Below are positions 44,848-49,195 of a stretch of 64,000 nucleotides of DNA, piece after piece (the stretch's first letter is position 1; every line of letters begins with the position of its first letter). The translations under genes were made by a program, and so were the position numbers. Below the pieces are notes generated by a model. That model did no database searches, was not told where the DNA came from, and saw only the letters and a program-made list of their open reading frames with translations. Location: the IMG/VR virus record IMGVR_UViG_3300031760_000008, positions 12,337-76,336 of that record. The stretch is one strand, 5' to 3'. Source of the DNA: a virus (Duplodnaviria; Heunggongvirae; Uroviricota; Caudoviricetes).

Positions 44848-47244
44848 TTAAGTTTTATCAATTTTAGGTACTATCTTTTCATTTACATCTAATTCTAATA
44901 CTCTTTTAGCTACTCTTTCTATTTCAGCATCATCAGCTACATTTGTAACATTTATTTTTTCTACTGGTCTTCCTTTATAATATATTGTATAAAAACCTTC
45001 ATTTTCTTTAGCTGATGCCCAATGATAATCAGCATCGTCATATGGATGAATTGAACTTATACTAAATGTACTATTATGTTGAGGAGCTCTATAACTATTT
45101 ATCATATGTGTTACTGAGAAGCTTTGACCATCTACTTTAAATGTTCCATGATCATATACAGTATCATCATAATCAAAACGTCTGTATCTACCATCTTCAT
45201 CATTATGATAATCATAGTTTTTATCATGAACATCTTTTTTCCACTCTATACCTTCATTTAAATTATCGAAATCACTTTCTTTTATTTTCATGATATAAGT
45301 ATTTGGTATTAATTCCTTTTTAGATTTAACTTCTTTAGCTCCTAATTTATCAGCTATATCAGTTACATACATTTCATGATTTTTAATTTTTAATCTTATA
45401 TTTTTTAATTCATTAATAGTTAATGGTTTATCTAAATTATAATATTTTATATATGTTTCATTTGATACATATATTACCATTGCACTATTAACCAAATTCT
45501 CTCCATCTGTAACAGCAATTTCTTCTTCTACCTCTTCTGTTATAACTCCTCTTTCTTTTATTTCTTCTCTTATTGTAGCATCATCATTAGCTACATAAAC
45601 AGCATCAAGAGCTATTTCTCTTAATAATTCAAGGGGCATTCTGTAATAATTATTAGCTATATAATCATATGGTTTAGCTATAAAATTATTTAATTCTATT
45701 TTCCATTCTTTCTTTTCATCATCTGATAATCTACTTTTTAATTCTTTTATAATTAAACTATCGTTATCAGCAACATATATAGCATTTAAAGCTATTTCTT
45801 TTAAAGTAGTTCTATCTGATGTTTGATAACATTCATCATATAATCCTTCTTTTTTAATAGTTTTTGATTCATCTAATGATTCTTCATTAAAAGCTTCTTC
45901 ATAATTATCAATAAAATCATCTAAAATATTTTGCATATCTCTTTTTACAGATTTAACATATGTTACAGGACCTCTTGCTTCTGCATCTCCATTATCCATT
46001 ACTCTTTGAAATCCTGAATATATATCTTCTCCTGCATAATTTATATCTTTTATATCTTCAGTAGCTTCTAATATTTCATTAGCTATATCTTCTAAATCAT
46101 CGGCTTCAACTACATTTTCTACTTTTTCTTTCCATTCTTTAGCTTGATTAATTCTTTTTTCTATATCATTTTCTCTAGCTTCACAATATAATCCTTTTTC
46201 TATAGAATCTTTTTTAGCAGCTTCTATATCAGCATCAGTTGCTTCAGTTAATCCTGATTGTACTCCTTCATATCCTAATCCATAAGATCCTATTTTATTT
46301 CCATTAATATCTAATATAGAACTATCTAACATTCCTGATTTAACTTTATCAGCTACTTTATATAATATATCAGATATTGAATTTTCTAAGTCATAACCAA
46401 TTCCAAAAGTATCTTCATTAGAACAATCAAATTTTAATTCAAATATACAAGCTCCTTCTTCTATAGCTTCTTGCTTTTTACTCATCATTTCTTTTAGAGT
46501 GCTTTTTATAATTGATGATTCTGTAACTTTACCTTTTTCATTTAAATCTTTGCAAGCTGCATTCATTATATATTTAGAACCTTTTTGAACAAATTTCTTC
46601 TCTTTAGTATCATATACTCCAAATTTTGCTCCAGGTCCTTCAAATTCTCTTACTTGATATCTATCAGATGTATCTTTACTTTCTTTTAAAACAAAACTAT
46701 CTCCTAATTTCTTACCACCTTTATCTATCCAATATGCTTCAAAACTTCCATCATCATTTCTAATTACTTTATAATATGAATGACCCATGTCTGTAGTTAC
46801 ATCTAATATCATATCTTCTATTGCTTCATAATTTTTTGTAACATCACCTAATACTTTATTATTTTTGATTAATATATCTAACTCATCCTCATCTATATAA
46901 TCAGTAACTTTAGACTCTTTTTTAACTTCTTTAGCTTCTTCTATTTTTTCAGCTTTATCATCTTCATCTGGAATGTAATCTTCTGAAGCCATAAATAATT
47001 CTTTAGCTGTATCTTCCCATAATTTTTCATCTTCTATTGTTCCATAATCTTCTAAACATTTATCATCAATTTGTCCTTTATACAATACTTTAAATTCTTC
47101 AAAAGTATTTTTATCATCTTTTTCTATTTTAGTATCTACTGGTTCAGTACTAACTTCTAGAACTTCTTTTTCATCAGGTAATTCTACAACTTTACCTTCA
47201 GCTTTCTTTTTAAGTTCTTTTTGTTCTTTAAATGATTTAAACAT
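44848..47244 (-). CDS. large acidic head-module protein with internal repeats (candidate internal/ejected protein)
   Basis: 798 aa; repeats 'TLKEIALNAIYVADNDSLIIKELKSR' / 'LLREIALDAVYVANDDATIREEIKER'; terminator hairpin downstream. Confidence 0.5.
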   Translation of the reverse strand: MFKSFKEQKELKKKAEGKVVELPDEKEVLEVSTEPVDTKIEKDDKNTFEEFKVLYKGQIDDKCLEDYGTIEDEKLWEDTAKELFMASEDYIPDEDDKAEKIEEAKEVKKESKVTDYIDEDELDILIKNNKVLGDVTKNYEAIEDMILDVTTDMGHSYYKVIRNDDGSFEAYWIDKGGKKLGDSFVLKESKDTSDRYQVREFEGPGAKFGVYDTKEKKFVQKGSKYIMNAACKDLNEKGKVTESSIIKSTLKEMMSKKQEAIEEGACIFELKFDCSNEDTFGIGYDLENSISDILYKVADKVKSGMLDSSILDINGNKIGSYGLGYEGVQSGLTEATDADIEAAKKDSIEKGLYCEARENDIEKRINQAKEWKEKVENVVEADDLEDIANEILEATEDIKDINYAGEDIYSGFQRVMDNGDAEARGPVTYVKSVKRDMQNILDDFIDNYEEAFNEESLDESKTIKKEGLYDECYQTSDRTTLKEIALNAIYVADNDSLIIKELKSRLSDDEKKEWKIELNNFIAKPYDYIANNYYRMPLELLREIALDAVYVANDDATIREEIKERGVITEEVEEEIAVTDGENLVNSAMVIYVSNETYIKYYNLDKPLTINELKNIRLKIKNHEMYVTDIADKLGAKEVKSKKELIPNTYIMKIKESDFDNLNEGIEWKKDVHDKNYDYHNDEDGRYRRFDYDDTVYDHGTFKVDGQSFSVTHMINSYRAPQHNSTFSISSIHPYDDADYHWASAKENEGFYTIYYKGRPVEKINVTNVADDAEIERVAKRVLELDVNEKIVPKIDKT

Positions 47245-48418
47245 TTTTATTATCTCCTTCCTTATTATCTAACTTATTCATATACTGAATATTATCAATA
47301 TATTCATCAATACTAATAAAATGATCATTATCATCAAGTTCTAATAAACTATAAATATTTTTAAAGCCTTCCTCAAAGTGATATTTATTTGATATATTTT
47401 CTTCTATCCATTTTATTTGATCTTCATCTAAATAATTATCTATTAAATTTAATCCCTTAATATCATTATAACATAATCTTTTCTTTGTATTTTCAGTTGA
47501 AGGAAATTGTTTTGATTCATTTAATTGAACTTCTTCCCAATTATCTGCTCCATTATTTCCAAATTTAGATTCTCTTTCAATGAAATCAAATACATCTTCA
47601 TAACTTGAAAATTTTCTAGCTTTTTCTATATCCTTTACCCAGTAATAATCATTATTTGATTTCTCAGATAAATATCTATTTGTTTTATTATTTTTAATAA
47701 CCCAAGTTTCTTGGTTTGATTCATTAATTAAATTATCTACTTTATCCATTAATTCATCCTTTAAATTTTGAATTCTATCTACTTGAGCAATTCCTGTTTT
47801 TAAATCTTGTTCTGTTTGTTCTAAATCTATATTATTATAATTCATTTCTTCACTTTCCTCAAGCCAAGCCCCTTGTTGAACTAATGATTCACAAAGAGTA
47901 TTTACTTTTTGTTTAGAAAAATCAAATGATTCTTTTAATCCATTATTTATGTAATATTCAACTTTACCTTCATCAGTTAGTTTAAGAATTTCGGTCATAT
48001 CAGAAACAAATGTTAACTTACCTTCGTTAACAAGTTTTCTATCATAACTTTCAGTATCTTTAATTATATGCAATTTAATATCACCTCTTTCTATATTATT
48101 ATCTTTAAAATAATCTATATTTTTATTAAGTGATAAAATCATTTCTATAATATCATCTTTTAAATCTTTAGATGTAAAATCTTCTTTCTTATCTGTTTCA
48201 GTTATACCAAATCTAAAGAATAAAAATCCTTTTTCCATGTTTACATCAACATATACTCTACCTAAACCTGGTTGTGGAAAATAGATTTGAAGAAAGTCTT
48301 CATTATCTATAAGACTTTCTATTCCTTTTAAATCATGAAATTTATTATCAATATGCACTGTTGCATTTAATATATAATCATATTTAACTTTCTTACTATA
48401 ATCTGAAAAAGATGACAT
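47237..48418 (-). CDS. hypothetical protein (393 aa), partner of upstream nucleotidyltransferase
   Basis: Start 3 nt after stop of 48422..49195; 8-nt overlap with 798-aa gene. Confidence 0.45.
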   Translation of the reverse strand: MSSFSDYSKKVKYDYILNATVHIDNKFHDLKGIESLIDNEDFLQIYFPQPGLGRVYVDVNMEKGFLFFRFGITETDKKEDFTSKDLKDDIIEMILSLNKNIDYFKDNNIERGDIKLHIIKDTESYDRKLVNEGKLTFVSDMTEILKLTDEGKVEYYINNGLKESFDFSKQKVNTLCESLVQQGAWLEESEEMNYNNIDLEQTEQDLKTGIAQVDRIQNLKDELMDKVDNLINESNQETWVIKNNKTNRYLSEKSNNDYYWVKDIEKARKFSSYEDVFDFIERESKFGNNGADNWEEVQLNESKQFPSTENTKKRLCYNDIKGLNLIDNYLDEDQIKWIEENISNKYHFEEGFKNIYSLLELDDNDHFISIDEYIDNIQYMNKLDNKEGDNKNV

Positions 48419-48421
48419 TTT

Positions 48422-49195
48422 TTATTCTCCTTTAAAATATATTTGTGGTTTAGTTATTGATGTTATAGAATTATTAGATAAAGTTATTGTTTTAGTAGTA
48501 GTAGTTAATCCTTCTTCTAAAGATAAATCTTTAGATCTTAATTCATAATATTTATCTTTAAGAATTTTTAACATATCCATAGATCTTAATTCTTTAAATA
48601 CTAAATTACCTATTGAAGCTTCTCCATCTTCAGCTAATCCTAATTTTCTCATCATATATATTTCATTAATTAATTCTAAAATTTTATCAGGATCTGTTCC
48701 ATTTAAAACATCTTCACACTTATCTATATATTCTTCTAAAGATGCAGATATATCAGGTATTTCATATGTAATAGGTTTTGGAAATGATACCCATTCATTT
48801 TTTAATATAGAATATCTTCCATTTGTAGCATTTCCATCTTTAACATCTTCAATATATAATTCCACAGGAATACCATTTATATTTAAATCATAATTATCAT
48901 TGAAAGATCCTTTTCTAGCATTATATAAAGTCCTTAATATTTCAGGATCAACATAATTAACTTCTGAATTAACTATAATATGTAAATCAATATCAGAAGT
49001 TTCATTATAATTATATGAAGCATTAGATCCTACTATTTCTATATCAACTATATTTAAAGGTATTTCTATAAATTTTAAAAATTCTTGAGATATATCATAT
49101 AACTTCTTATATACATCAGTTTTTATTGTATTATCACTATTCCATAAATCTGGATTTAATTTATCATGAACTTCAACTGCTTCTAATAATAACAT
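48422..49195 (-). CDS. Pol-beta-superfamily nucleotidyltransferase (NTP_transf_2 type) with C-terminal helical domain
   Basis: 'IVGSNASYNYNETSDIDLHIIV' = G[SG]..(x)..SDhDh NTase motif; size and layout like KNTase/LinB or MNT-type enzymes. Confidence 0.6.
   Translation of the reverse strand: MLLLEAVEVHDKLNPDLWNSDNTIKTDVYKKLYDISQEFLKFIEIPLNIVDIEIVGSNASYNYNETSDIDLHIIVNSEVNYVDPEILRTLYNARKGSFNDNYDLNINGIPVELYIEDVKDGNATNGRYSILKNEWVSFPKPITYEIPDISASLEEYIDKCEDVLNGTDPDKILELINEIYMMRKLGLAEDGEASIGNLVFKELRSMDMLKILKDKYYELRSKDLSLEEGLTTTTKTITLSNNSITSITKPQIYFKGE

Follow-up and report, generated by a model that had tools for sequence, protein, structure and literature searches.

A Pol-beta-fold nucleotidyltransferase encoded upstream of a phage prohead protease and its possible delivery with the virion

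Gene content and transcription signals of the locus

The window analyzed here, a stretch of 64,000 nucleotides from the virus record IMGVR_UViG_3300031760_000008, belongs to a lineage of ~200-kb myophages with a GC content of 27% and carries a gene cassette on its minus strand, on which all features described below are located. Upstream, the cassette is delimited by a conserved block of three genes (49592..51356; 236, 163, and 183 aa), whose products are 41–73% identical across the clade and show no enrichment of protease sites. In the clade members, this block is followed by a nucleotidyltransferase (NTase) gene amid variable genes and then by the genes of the S77 protease and the Gp23 capsid protein, while the cassette contents other than the NTase differ between related phages. 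The sequence-only reading had placed the NTase and a 393-aa partner as the first genes of the head module. No portal or terminase gene was found near the NTase gene, so the locus is better described as a cassette upstream of the prohead protease, and another gene precedes the two.

This gene encodes a 102-aa protein (49199..49507) and lies 36 nt downstream of a late-type promoter-like element, GTAAAATATTAT (49532..49543), which overlaps TATAAAT. It opens the transcription unit, in which the NTase gene (48422..49195) is therefore the second. The 102-aa protein has a weak Pfam match to PAP_assoc (E 0.054) and no other, and its N-terminus (RVINI) resembles those of small proteins in the same position in clade members. 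The ATG of the 393-aa gene (47237..48418) follows the NTase stop after a 3-nt spacer (GAA TAA AAA ATG), as previously read, and the stop of the 393-aa gene overlaps the start of the gene for a 798-aa acidic protein (44848..47244) by 8 nt. A terminator-like hairpin with a 12 bp stem and a T-run (44808..44835) ends this unit of four genes.

A distance of 150 nt separates the 798-aa gene from the Peptidase_S77 gene downstream, which is preceded by a separate promoter-like copy (44762..44773), and the capsid gene also has its own copies (43151, 43200). Co-transcription of the NTase pair with the 798-aa, protease, and capsid genes from position 49533 had been proposed. The promoter copy is real, but the hairpin precedes the protease and capsid genes, which have promoters of their own; these genes thus share a promoter class and not one obligatory operon. 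The element GTAAAATATTA[TA] occurs in 17 exact copies in the window, all intergenic and all on the minus strand, and 24 matches with at most one mismatch were counted vs 5.2 expected. Nine of the 16 listed copies lie 35–50 nt upstream of a start codon, and the others 75–522 nt. The element is common to the NTase unit and to the protease, major capsid protein (MCP), fiber, and tail genes. Judging by this promoter class, the NTase unit is probably transcribed late and co-expressed with the head genes.

The nucleotidyltransferase and its family

The product of 48422..49195 (257 aa) was assigned to the Pol-beta-fold NTases on the basis of Pfam and PHROG matches, alignments, and a structural model. 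It contains IVGSNASYNYNETSDIDLHIIV, in which G56-S57 is followed by nine residues and then S67-D68-I69-D70-L71, in agreement with the signature reported earlier and with the superfamily pattern of h-G-[GS] followed 9–13 residues on by [DE]-h-[DE]-h. The third carboxylate, E112, is located in PVELY on a later beta-strand of the alpha/beta core. The signature is more than a chance occurrence, since Pfam NTP_transf_2 matches with an E-value of 6.6e-5 and 23.7 bits (cut-off 21) and the PHROG 36119 profile with an E-value of 1.3e-40, the latter over its full length (residues 7–226 on profile positions 19–247 of 247). G56, D68, D70, H72, and E112 are invariant in three family alignments (A1, A2, and A3, with 10, 35, and 53 members), down to 27% identity. 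S57 shows no variation in the 35- and 53-member alignments, and cyanophage and Cr30 homologs have Gly at this position, a replacement that stays within the h-G-[GS] motif. The AlphaFold model (pLDDT 84.8) is confident and shows the canonical beta-GS-alpha-beta(DxD)...beta(E) core with the catalytic residues intact. The core is followed by four helices (150–224), which bear out the C-terminal helical domain predicted earlier, and by a disordered, clade-specific tail (230–257). Sequence and model together indicate that the 257-aa NTase is apparently catalytically active.

The PHROG 36119 family comprises 3,625 clusters at 50% identity and is restricted to phages; none of its members has been characterized, and no closely related structure has been solved. 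In sequence and fold, the catalytic core is matched best by MNT antitoxins and KNTase/ANT enzymes (9xbd_E, 2rff, 1ylq, and 1no5). The only member with experimental data is ORF156 of the T4-like cyanophage S-CREM2 (gp156, a "hypothetical protein"), which shares 33% identity with the window NTase over the full length and keeps all motifs. Six unique peptides of ORF156 were detected in CsCl-purified virions, although the S-CREM2 authors themselves warn that a non-virion protein, if abundant, could co-purify. The S-CREM2 gene adjoins those of the gp55 late sigma factor, UvsW, and a cytidylyltransferase, whereas the window NTase belongs to a head cassette, and ORF156 has no LxE|A ahead of its domain (cf. 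the S-CRM01 homolog).

Predicted prohead processing and the neighboring cassette proteins

The gene at 43232..44698 encodes a prohead protease of the T4 gp21 type (Peptidase_S77) with a fused C-terminal region that is coiled-coil and scaffold-like, and the gene at 41591..42979 (likely start ATG 42979) encodes a Gp23-type MCP with ~30% identity to the capsid proteins of SP-15/LIS04-type Firmicutes phages. In T4, gp21 self-cleaves nine N-terminal residues and the gp23 propeptide has 65 residues (PMC9958956); the predicted sites MGKATIIE8|A of the protease and SLYE64|A of the MCP mirror this processing. T4-type sites, (L/I)xE|(S/A), were counted in the window proteins and compared with expectation. 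They are enriched in the protease/scaffold (12 vs 1.9; z 7.9), the 393-aa protein (5 vs 0.5; z 6.7), the 798-aa protein (6 vs 1.5; z 3.8), and the MCP (3 vs 0.5; z 3.5), and no enrichment was found in the sheath, the tape-measure-sized protein, the fibers, the glycosyltransferase, or the phosphatase. The pattern is repeated in orthologous scaffolds and several cassette proteins, and is uneven in orthologs of the 393-aa protein (a 440-aa ortholog in L005 has one site; z 0). The window NTase has a single site, MLLLE5|A (1 vs 0.5 expected). This L-x-E is a feature of the domain in 32 of 36 long family members, often followed by K, and being family-wide is therefore not independent evidence of cleavage; A or S at P1' is weakly associated with an N-terminal extension (p = 0.04).

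The 393-aa protein consists of four domains (D1 1–120, D2 125–187, D3 239–298, D4 309–386) and a long helix (199–234), and three of its five (L/I)xE|S sites (E188, E233, and E301) fall in inter-domain linkers. Its tenfold excess of sites is in line with a protein of the prohead core or head interior that undergoes processing. Searches against Pfam, PHROG, NCBIfam, and PADLOC gave no match for it, and neither an informative fold match nor a catalytic signature was found. Its sequence changes far more quickly than that of the NTase. It is confined to the ~200-kb phage clade and is absent at ~78 NTase loci outside the clade, and in L005 and L009 the two genes stand apart or in a different order. 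These observations argue against the proposed enzyme pair; the 393-aa protein appears to be capsid cargo or a core/scaffold protein, not a co-enzyme.

The 798-aa protein (pI 4.6; six sites) is likewise predicted to be head cargo. Its N-terminal ~105-aa module (46930..47244) ends at the predicted KIEE103|A and has the core motif FEEFKVLYKGQIDDKC..DYG..D..LWEDTAKEL..YIP. Residues 5–118 match the N-termini of 405-aa NTase fusions in sister phages (P0048/49/50/70) and of an LPD11 protein in L005/L006 (E 1e-19 to 1e-24). The P0048-type NTases carry a 180-aa N-terminal extension that includes the shared module and ends at KKLNE|S, and the window NTase itself is without the module. The module is a candidate capsid-targeting propeptide. 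An end at E103 would parallel the ejection proteins of SPN3US/phiKZ-like phages, in which propeptides of 100–130 residues are removed by a gp21-like protease, have multiple sites and N-termini conserved between diverged head proteins, and act as capsid-targeting sequences (PMC5694885). The SPN3US/phiKZ-like phages belong to another lineage, however, with an AxE/SxE motif in place of the T4-like (L/I)xE found here and no propeptide sequence homology.

Possible roles of the nucleotidyltransferase in infection

The NTase may be a virion-delivered effector that is loaded with the cassette proteins and modifies a host target after entry, an explanation that we regard as the best available and hold with about even confidence. 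Late in infection, the cassette proteins would be made alongside the head proteins and built into the prohead core, some of them by means of the portable ~105-aa propeptide, which is located at the N-terminus of the 798-aa protein here and, in sister phages, of the NTase or the LPD11 protein. The S77 protease would then cut at (L/I)-x-E|(S/A), taking off the propeptides and splitting the 393-aa and 798-aa proteins at their domain linkers. The surviving domains, including the NTase, would be retained in the head and accompany the DNA into the cell, where the NTase would move a nucleotidyl group from an NTP onto a host macromolecule or nucleotide, in support of takeover or counter-defense. Prohead loading, cleavage, delivery, and nucleotidyl transfer are what we infer for this phage, as are the kind of substrate and the anti-defense role. 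The T4 proteins Alt and IPI–III, with the gp21 prohead-protease system, offer a precedent: these late non-essential proteins join the prohead core, are trimmed by an S77 protease at (L/I)xE, stay in the head, and are injected along with the DNA. Among them, Alt modifies the host as a transferase, but it acts by ADP-ribosylation, whereas the chemistry here would be nucleotidyl transfer. The T4 CTS also measures ~10 aa, vs ~105 aa for the candidate module, which the window NTase does not carry.

A serious rival, which we nevertheless consider less probable, is a cytoplasmic, non-packaged NTase that acts on RNA or tRNA 3' ends, nucleotides, or NAD-related small molecules, with an incidental position among head genes. 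It draws its weight from the many homologs in replication or RNA-repair neighborhoods: in cyanophages, Cr30, Molly, and jumbo-type loci, the NTase gene has replication, nucleotide-metabolism, tRNA, PNK, or AAA+ genes around it and is not placed among head genes. Adjacency to head genes is also not proof of a structural role, because a phage from the closest group in culture, Listeria phage LIS04, has ribonucleotide reductase genes between portal and protease. Set against this are the detection of ORF156 in S-CREM2 virions despite a gene outside the structural module, and the sister-phage NTases fused, with an LNE|S junction, behind a module common to other cassette proteins. The late promoter class likewise argues for packaging, as does the protease/MCP linkage, which recurs in lineages whose NTases are ~40% identical to that of the window (adjacent upstream in L027, adjacent downstream in L023, and also in L044/45/91/93). 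Fusions to the effector domains ART-PolyVal, SAM lyase, and RelE point in the same direction. The domains found among 53 long family members include BspA-LRR (10), ART-PolyVal (8), and DUF5662 (8) and, more rarely, SAM lyase (3), RelE (2), and GNAT (1). Of the packaged enzyme pair proposed earlier, the packaging of the NTase thus retains support from the sister fusion, the effector-domain fusions, and the virion-detected homolog. Even with a cytoplasmic NTase, the 393-aa and 798-aa products could nonetheless belong to the head.

The NTase and the 393-aa protein might alternatively form a two-protein module, either an MNT-type antitoxin with its toxin or an enzyme with its specificity subunit. 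The short spacer, the single transcription unit, and the presence of both families in every clade member examined are in line with such a module, but the features of the 393-aa protein described above make it improbable. MNT (MntA) and KNTase/ANT share the Pol-beta core GS...DxD...E with the window NTase, which is, however, twice the size of a minimal MNT, lacks a HEPN partner, and resembles them only in a ~50-residue core. A HEPN-MNT antitoxin was considered and rejected, as the NTase has 257 aa vs ~100–140 aa and an extra helical domain and its neighbors have no HEPN match. A search of the 393-aa protein for R-x4-6-H found a sole R-x5-H, which is part of a beta-strand and lacks conservation.

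No specific resemblance was found to MNT antitoxins or to aminoglycoside and lincosamide NTases, whose layout the sequence-only reading had invoked, or to CD-NTases, and the HMM searches gave the NTP_transf_2 match but none to KNTase_C or to CD-NTase/CBASS cyclase models. A cGAS/DncV-like CD-NTase, or an enzyme that makes, caps, or mimics cyclic oligonucleotide immune messengers, is very improbable: neither CBASS cyclase models nor fold similarity place the protein among CD-NTases, PADLOC gives only weak matches to the minimal-NTase model PDC-S09, the protein resembles CD-NTases no more closely than it does MNT, TENT5, or AAD(9), and the window NTase is smaller than typical CD-NTases. Hardly credible is a moron-borne NTase that modifies antibiotics (aminoglycoside ANT/KNTase or lincosamide Lnu type), which the KNTase-like layout of NTase plus helical domain and the label "aminoglycoside nucleotidyltransferase" of a DSL-LC02 homolog in one database record would favor, and for which KNTase_C, the family models, and solved ANT structures gave no support.

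More tentatively, and as a rather doubtful generalization, the whole family (at least 3,600 clusters, in large phages) could represent a new class of virion-delivered enzymes nucleotidylating a host immune or takeover protein, RNA, or nucleotide messenger. On this view, the cassette upstream of the prohead protease would constitute an exchangeable "payload bay", whose new cargo would be loaded simply by acquiring the ~105-aa propeptide. Polyvalent proteins are also predicted to be delivered with the DNA, and the Pol-beta NTase described among them is minimal, comes mostly from firmicute conjugative elements, and is fused to ArdC-N (Iyer et al. 2017; PMC5512222). The PHROG 36119 NTase is phage-borne and has an extra four-helix domain, and therefore probably represents a different family. 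The window NTase is a single-domain solo form and not itself polyvalent. Its domain relatives are found in polypeptides of up to 1,858–2,082 aa with ART-PolyVal, SAM lyase, GNAT, RelE, inteins, and LRRs, and the L005 cassette includes an LPD11 protein. Since homologs with ART-PolyVal, SAM lyase, or LRR domains qualify as polyvalent, the NTase domain is part of the polyvalent repertoire.

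Fold and family of the nucleotidyltransferase

The 257-aa product of 48422..49195 (minus strand), which includes IVGSNASYNYNETSDIDLHIIV, is a nucleotidyltransferase (NTase) of the Pol-beta fold. It matches the Pfam model NTP_transf_2 with 23.7 bits against a gathering cut-off of 21, and matches PHROG 36119, annotated as of unknown function, over its full length (E = 1.3e-40). In alignments with homologs of 27–34% identity (cyanophages, Caulobacter phage Cr30, and Maribacter phage Molly), with 35 diverse solo members, and with 53 long fused members, residues G56, D68, D70, H72, and E112 are invariant throughout, as are R183, N197, F200, K201, and R204 in the C-terminal part. 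S57 does not vary among the solo or the fused members; the cyanophage and Cr30 homologs have Gly at this position, still in keeping with h-G-[GS]. An AlphaFold2 model built from the 35-sequence alignment (mean pLDDT of 84.8) has the canonical core, beta-GS-alpha-beta(DxD)...beta(E), and behind it a domain of four helices (residues 150–224). The 28 C-terminal residues, an extension restricted to the closest relatives of the window, are disordered. The NTase fold and the C-terminal helical domain proposed by the sequence-only reading are thus upheld, and its underlying observation (both ORFs, the signature, and the 3-nt spacer) is confirmed.

The suggested likeness to aminoglycoside or lincosamide nucleotidyltransferases found no backing. 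Among the profiles proposed for comparison, NTP_transf_2 was recovered, KNTase_C and the other ANT/Lnu models of Pfam did not match the NTase, and PADLOC returned only weak matches to minimal NTases; no NCBIfam model matched. Sequence and profile searches of the PDB gave sub-threshold hits (E = 0.02–1) to the ~50-residue GS..DxD core of MNT-like proteins, DrrA, and GLD-2, and the viral structure library yielded uncharacterised relatives only. No named NTase subfamily in these resources fits.

An exhaustive search placed the NTase in a family of 3,625 clusters at 50% identity. Many members are long (500–1,858 aa), the NTase domain usually being N-terminal, and the Pfam partners in 53 of them include BspA-LRR (10), ART-PolyVal (8), DUF5662 (8), S-AdoMet lyase (3), inteins (2), RelE (2), GNAT, PARP, and HNH. 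These fused domains are those typical of polyvalent proteins, whose delivery together with the invading DNA has been predicted (PMC5512222). The NTase described in that study is of the minimal, ArdC-N-linked type (PMC5512222) and probably belongs to a different family from the window NTase.

Transcription unit and the 393-aa partner

The window has a GC content of 25–31%, and nearly all of its genes lie on the minus strand. Three nucleotides separate the NTase stop from the ATG of the 393-aa gene (47237..48418, minus strand), as originally described, and the stop of the latter overlaps the start of the 798-aa gene (44848..47244, minus strand) by 8 nt. Ahead of this group, GTAAAATATTAT at 49532–49543 belongs to a motif family with 24 matches at no more than one mismatch against 5.2 expected. 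The promoter-like element, with a consensus of about ATGTAAAATATTAWTAGAA, occurs between 107 and 60586 in 17 exact core copies, all on the minus strand and all intergenic (for example, 60575–60586, 56273–56284, 52517–52528, 51455–51466, 49532–49543, 44762–44773, 43151–43162, 16037–16048, and 5282–5293). Nine of the 16 copies listed with distances lie 35–50 nt before a start codon, and the remaining ones 75–522 nt. Since fibre-like and tail genes, as well as the protease (44762) and capsid (43151, 43200) genes, have copies ahead of them, the element looks like the late or structural promoter class of the phage, its timing being read from the genes it precedes; it is unlike the T4 late promoter TATAAATA alone.

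The unit starting at the 49532 copy comprises the 102-aa gene (49199..49507, minus strand), the NTase, the 393-aa gene, and the 798-aa gene, and is closed by a hairpin of 12 bp followed by a T-run (44808–44835). The proposed co-transcription therefore holds for the NTase, 393-aa, and 798-aa genes; the genes for the S77 protease/scaffold (43232..44698, minus strand) and the Gp23-type major capsid protein (MCP; 41591..42979, minus strand) lie beyond the hairpin with their own copies of the promoter class, so that their co-transcription with the NTase is not obligatory. No portal or terminase was detectable near the NTase. The 102-aa protein weakly matches PAP_assoc in Pfam (E = 0.054), a domain that partners Cid1-type NTase cores; the match is probably due to chance. 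Its RVINI N-terminus is common to small proteins at the same position in members of the window's clade.

Pfam, PHROG, NCBIfam, and PADLOC gave no match to the 393-aa protein, a fold search gave no informative one, and a HEPN signature was sought and not found. Its family is confined to the clade, where members share 28–41% identity, range from 245 to 584 aa, carry swappable middle inserts, and are neither constantly adjacent to the NTase nor constantly downstream of it; the family is absent from about 78 other NTase loci. In its model (pLDDT 75.5), three of five protease-type sites fall in low-confidence inter-domain linkers. The 393-aa protein is best read as a conserved protein of the prohead core or head interior that is processed by the protease, and not as a co-enzyme of the NTase. 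The original interpretation is partly supported: of the packaged enzyme pair envisaged, the NTase fold stands and the pairing is not supported.

Protease-type sites, a portable module, and the variable cassette

In T4, the prohead protease gp21 removes about 65 residues from gp23 and nine from itself, trims short N-terminal peptides of the internal proteins (IPs) and Alt, and degrades core proteins (PMC9958956; PMC5694885). When [LI]-x-E-[SA] counts in the window proteins were compared with residue shuffles, the pattern was over-represented only in the protease/scaffold (12 observed, 1.9 expected, z = 7.9), the 393-aa protein (5, 0.5, z = 6.7), the 798-aa protein (6, 1.5, z = 3.8), and the MCP (3, 0.5, z = 3.5), with no enrichment in the sheath, the tape-measure-sized protein, the fibres, the glycosyltransferase, the phosphatase, or the upstream block. 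The MCP site SLYE64↓A lies 39 residues ahead of the conserved SVQPM, and the protease begins with MGKATIIE8↓A. Orthologous scaffolds show the same pattern (z = 6.8–8.3), as do several other cassette proteins, some of which begin with short MNLIE↓A- or MNSRKFDITE↓A-type N-termini in the clade; enrichment is uneven among the partner orthologs.

The NTase itself has a single site, MLLLE5↓A, and its reading as a short T4-like targeting sequence was downgraded. The L-x-E is conserved family-wide (32 of 36 scorable long members), often followed by K, so that the site is not counted as independent evidence; the next residue is A or S in 18 of 25 members with an N-terminal extension and in 33 of 70 without one, a weak association (p = 0.04). 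Within the first 15 residues, a site occurs in three of the 62 window ORFs, namely the NTase, the protease, and a 381-aa protein (22227..23372, minus strand) directly upstream of the sheath gene. The latter begins with MNLTE↓AT, has no Pfam match and no MCP paralogy detectable by BLAST, and may be another processed head or neck protein. The capsid gene, listed mechanically as 41591..43069 (minus strand) with a GTG start at 43069, probably begins at ATG 42979 instead; this codon comes with an AAGGAGG ribosome-binding site, and the resulting N-terminus, MAKV..., is that of a clade ortholog (L006, MAKVITKE...).

Residues 5–118 of the 798-aa protein, with the core motif FEEFKVLYKGQIDDKC..DYG..D..LWEDTAKEL..YIP, form a module that matches the N-termini of two unrelated cargos (44–50% identity, E = 1e-19 to 1e-24). 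One is a set of 405-aa proteins of sister phages (P0048/49/50/70), in which module and linker precede the NTase domain with the junction KKLNE↓SIEVHE; the other is an LPD11-domain protein of loci L005/L006. A predicted site, KIEE103↓A, closes the module, which in this respect behaves like the 100–130-residue capsid-targeting propeptides of the SPN3US ejection proteins (PMC5694885). The fusions are the strongest argument within the clade for the NTase as head cargo. The NTase of the window has no module. A large-database search with the 120-aa module returned two fragments only and missed known matches, which is taken as a word-index limit and not as evidence.

Near-identical DNA for 44000–50500 of this uncultured phage was absent from 50,697 phage records. 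The nearest cultured capsid relatives, LIS04, SP-15, and GXN1, share ~30% identity, and close NTase relatives (71–90% identical) lie on ~200-kb metagenomic contigs. In four clade architectures, a conserved block of three genes and then a small RVINI-type protein lead into a variable cassette, after which come the S77 protease/scaffold and the Gp23-type MCP. The cassette (sizes in aa) holds the NTase, 393, and 798 in the window; the NTase, 608, 440, and 379–460 (LPD11) in L005/L006; the NTase, 160 (DUF7222), 50, 715, 131, and 1114 in L007/L008/L015; and 285 (DUF7222), 438, 405 (module and NTase), 207, and 710 in L009/L010. NTase identity across the four is 70–75%; a Pfam scan found no domains in the cassette proteins of 608, 710, and 1114 aa.

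Possible virion delivery and genomic contexts

The most likely reading, to which we give about an even chance, is that the NTase is a virion-delivered effector encoded in a variable internal-head-protein cassette. It would resemble in kind T4 Alt, the T4 IPs, and the SPN3US-type ejection proteins, and differ in its chemistry and in belonging to a very large, uncharacterised enzyme family. Its main rival, possible though rather unlikely, is that the NTase works in the cytoplasm on RNA or nucleotides and sits beside the head genes incidentally. The gene has replication, nucleotide-metabolism, and tRNA genes as neighbours in S-CRM01, DSL-LC02, Cr30, and Molly. At ~14 jumbo-type loci an AAA+ ATPase and a cytidylyltransferase-like gene precede the giant forms, sometimes with a polynucleotide kinase nearby; given these genes, the conserved block upstream of the giant forms was rejected as a head module. 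At 11 of 80 viral-contig loci, as scored with deliberately narrow HMMs, no more than 10 kb separates the NTase from an SP-15-like prohead protease/MCP pair; the NTase is directly upstream of the protease in L027 and directly downstream of the MCP in L023, and carries a 160–170-aa N-terminal extension in L044/45/91/93.

The gp156 of cyanophage S-CREM2 (126012..126725) was identified by tblastn as a family member with 33% full-length identity and all motifs. The S-CREM2 virion proteome includes ORF156 (six unique peptides, 15.2% coverage), together with its neighbours ORF154 (cytidylyltransferase) and ORF155 and a SAM hydrolase, with the authors' caution that abundant non-virion proteins could co-purify (PMC10665884). 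This NTase is thus virion-associated despite the location of its gene away from the structural module, and this softens the chief objection based on gene neighbourhood. No proteomes of carrier phages beyond S-CREM2 and S-CRM01 were found in the literature. A cytidylyltransferase (NMNAT-like) gene recurs one or two genes upstream of the NTase in cluster-C cyanophages and jumbo-type loci (S-CREM2, L095 2567–4684; S-CRM01, L001 6683–8678; L069 8155–15526; ~13 similar); tblastn found none in the window.

Enzymes that are packaged and injected act before any other phage protein once a cell is infected. To our knowledge, only a few are understood, the usual examples being T4 Alt, T4 IPI, the N4 virion RNA polymerase, and P1 Dar. 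If virion delivery is correct, nucleotidyl transfer would join the chemistries delivered by virions, and a first functional handle would be gained on a very large family whose members occur as solo genes, as propeptide fusions, and as modules of giant polyvalent proteins with ART and SAM-lyase domains. The shared module and the (L/I)xE↓(S/A) pattern make the packaging hypothesis directly testable, and point to a natural tag by which foreign proteins might be loaded into the capsids of this phage group. If wrong, the locus still cautions that head-adjacent genes need not be structural. LIS04, of the nearest cultured group, carries ribonucleotide reductase genes between the portal and the prohead protease/MCP (L011 4208–13398), which calls for caution in inferring structural roles from adjacency.

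Upstream of the NTase unit lie fibre-like repeat proteins, a GT2 glycosyltransferase, and three conserved unknowns. The region 52569..63434 (minus strand) encodes large paralogous fibre-like proteins of 534, 847, 547, and 903 aa (PHROGs 13589, 38337, and 9915), and a DUF285/BspA-type repeat protein (53645..54370) and the GT2 gene (52569..53615) lie within the structural region. Downstream of the MCP follow a metallophosphatase, small genes, seven tRNAs, and then the sheath and tail genes. The calcineurin-like metallophosphatase (40087..40830, minus strand; NinI-like Ser/Thr phosphatase PHROG) lies just 3' of the capsid gene and is syntenic in L009 (18318–19085); the tRNA genes (Gln, Cys, Trp, Tyr, two Ser, and Pro) are scattered over 30323..36073 (minus strand) among small ORFs between the capsid and tail regions. 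Just 3' of the sheath gene, three successive ORFs in three frames (18336..19801, minus strand; 117, 316, and 99 aa) are collinear with one 501-aa protein that follows a giant NTase-LRR-ART protein in L013 (6112–7614). This collinearity implies two putative frameshifts, near 19514–19521 and 18572–18577, which could reflect programmed slippage, a pseudogene, or an assembly error.
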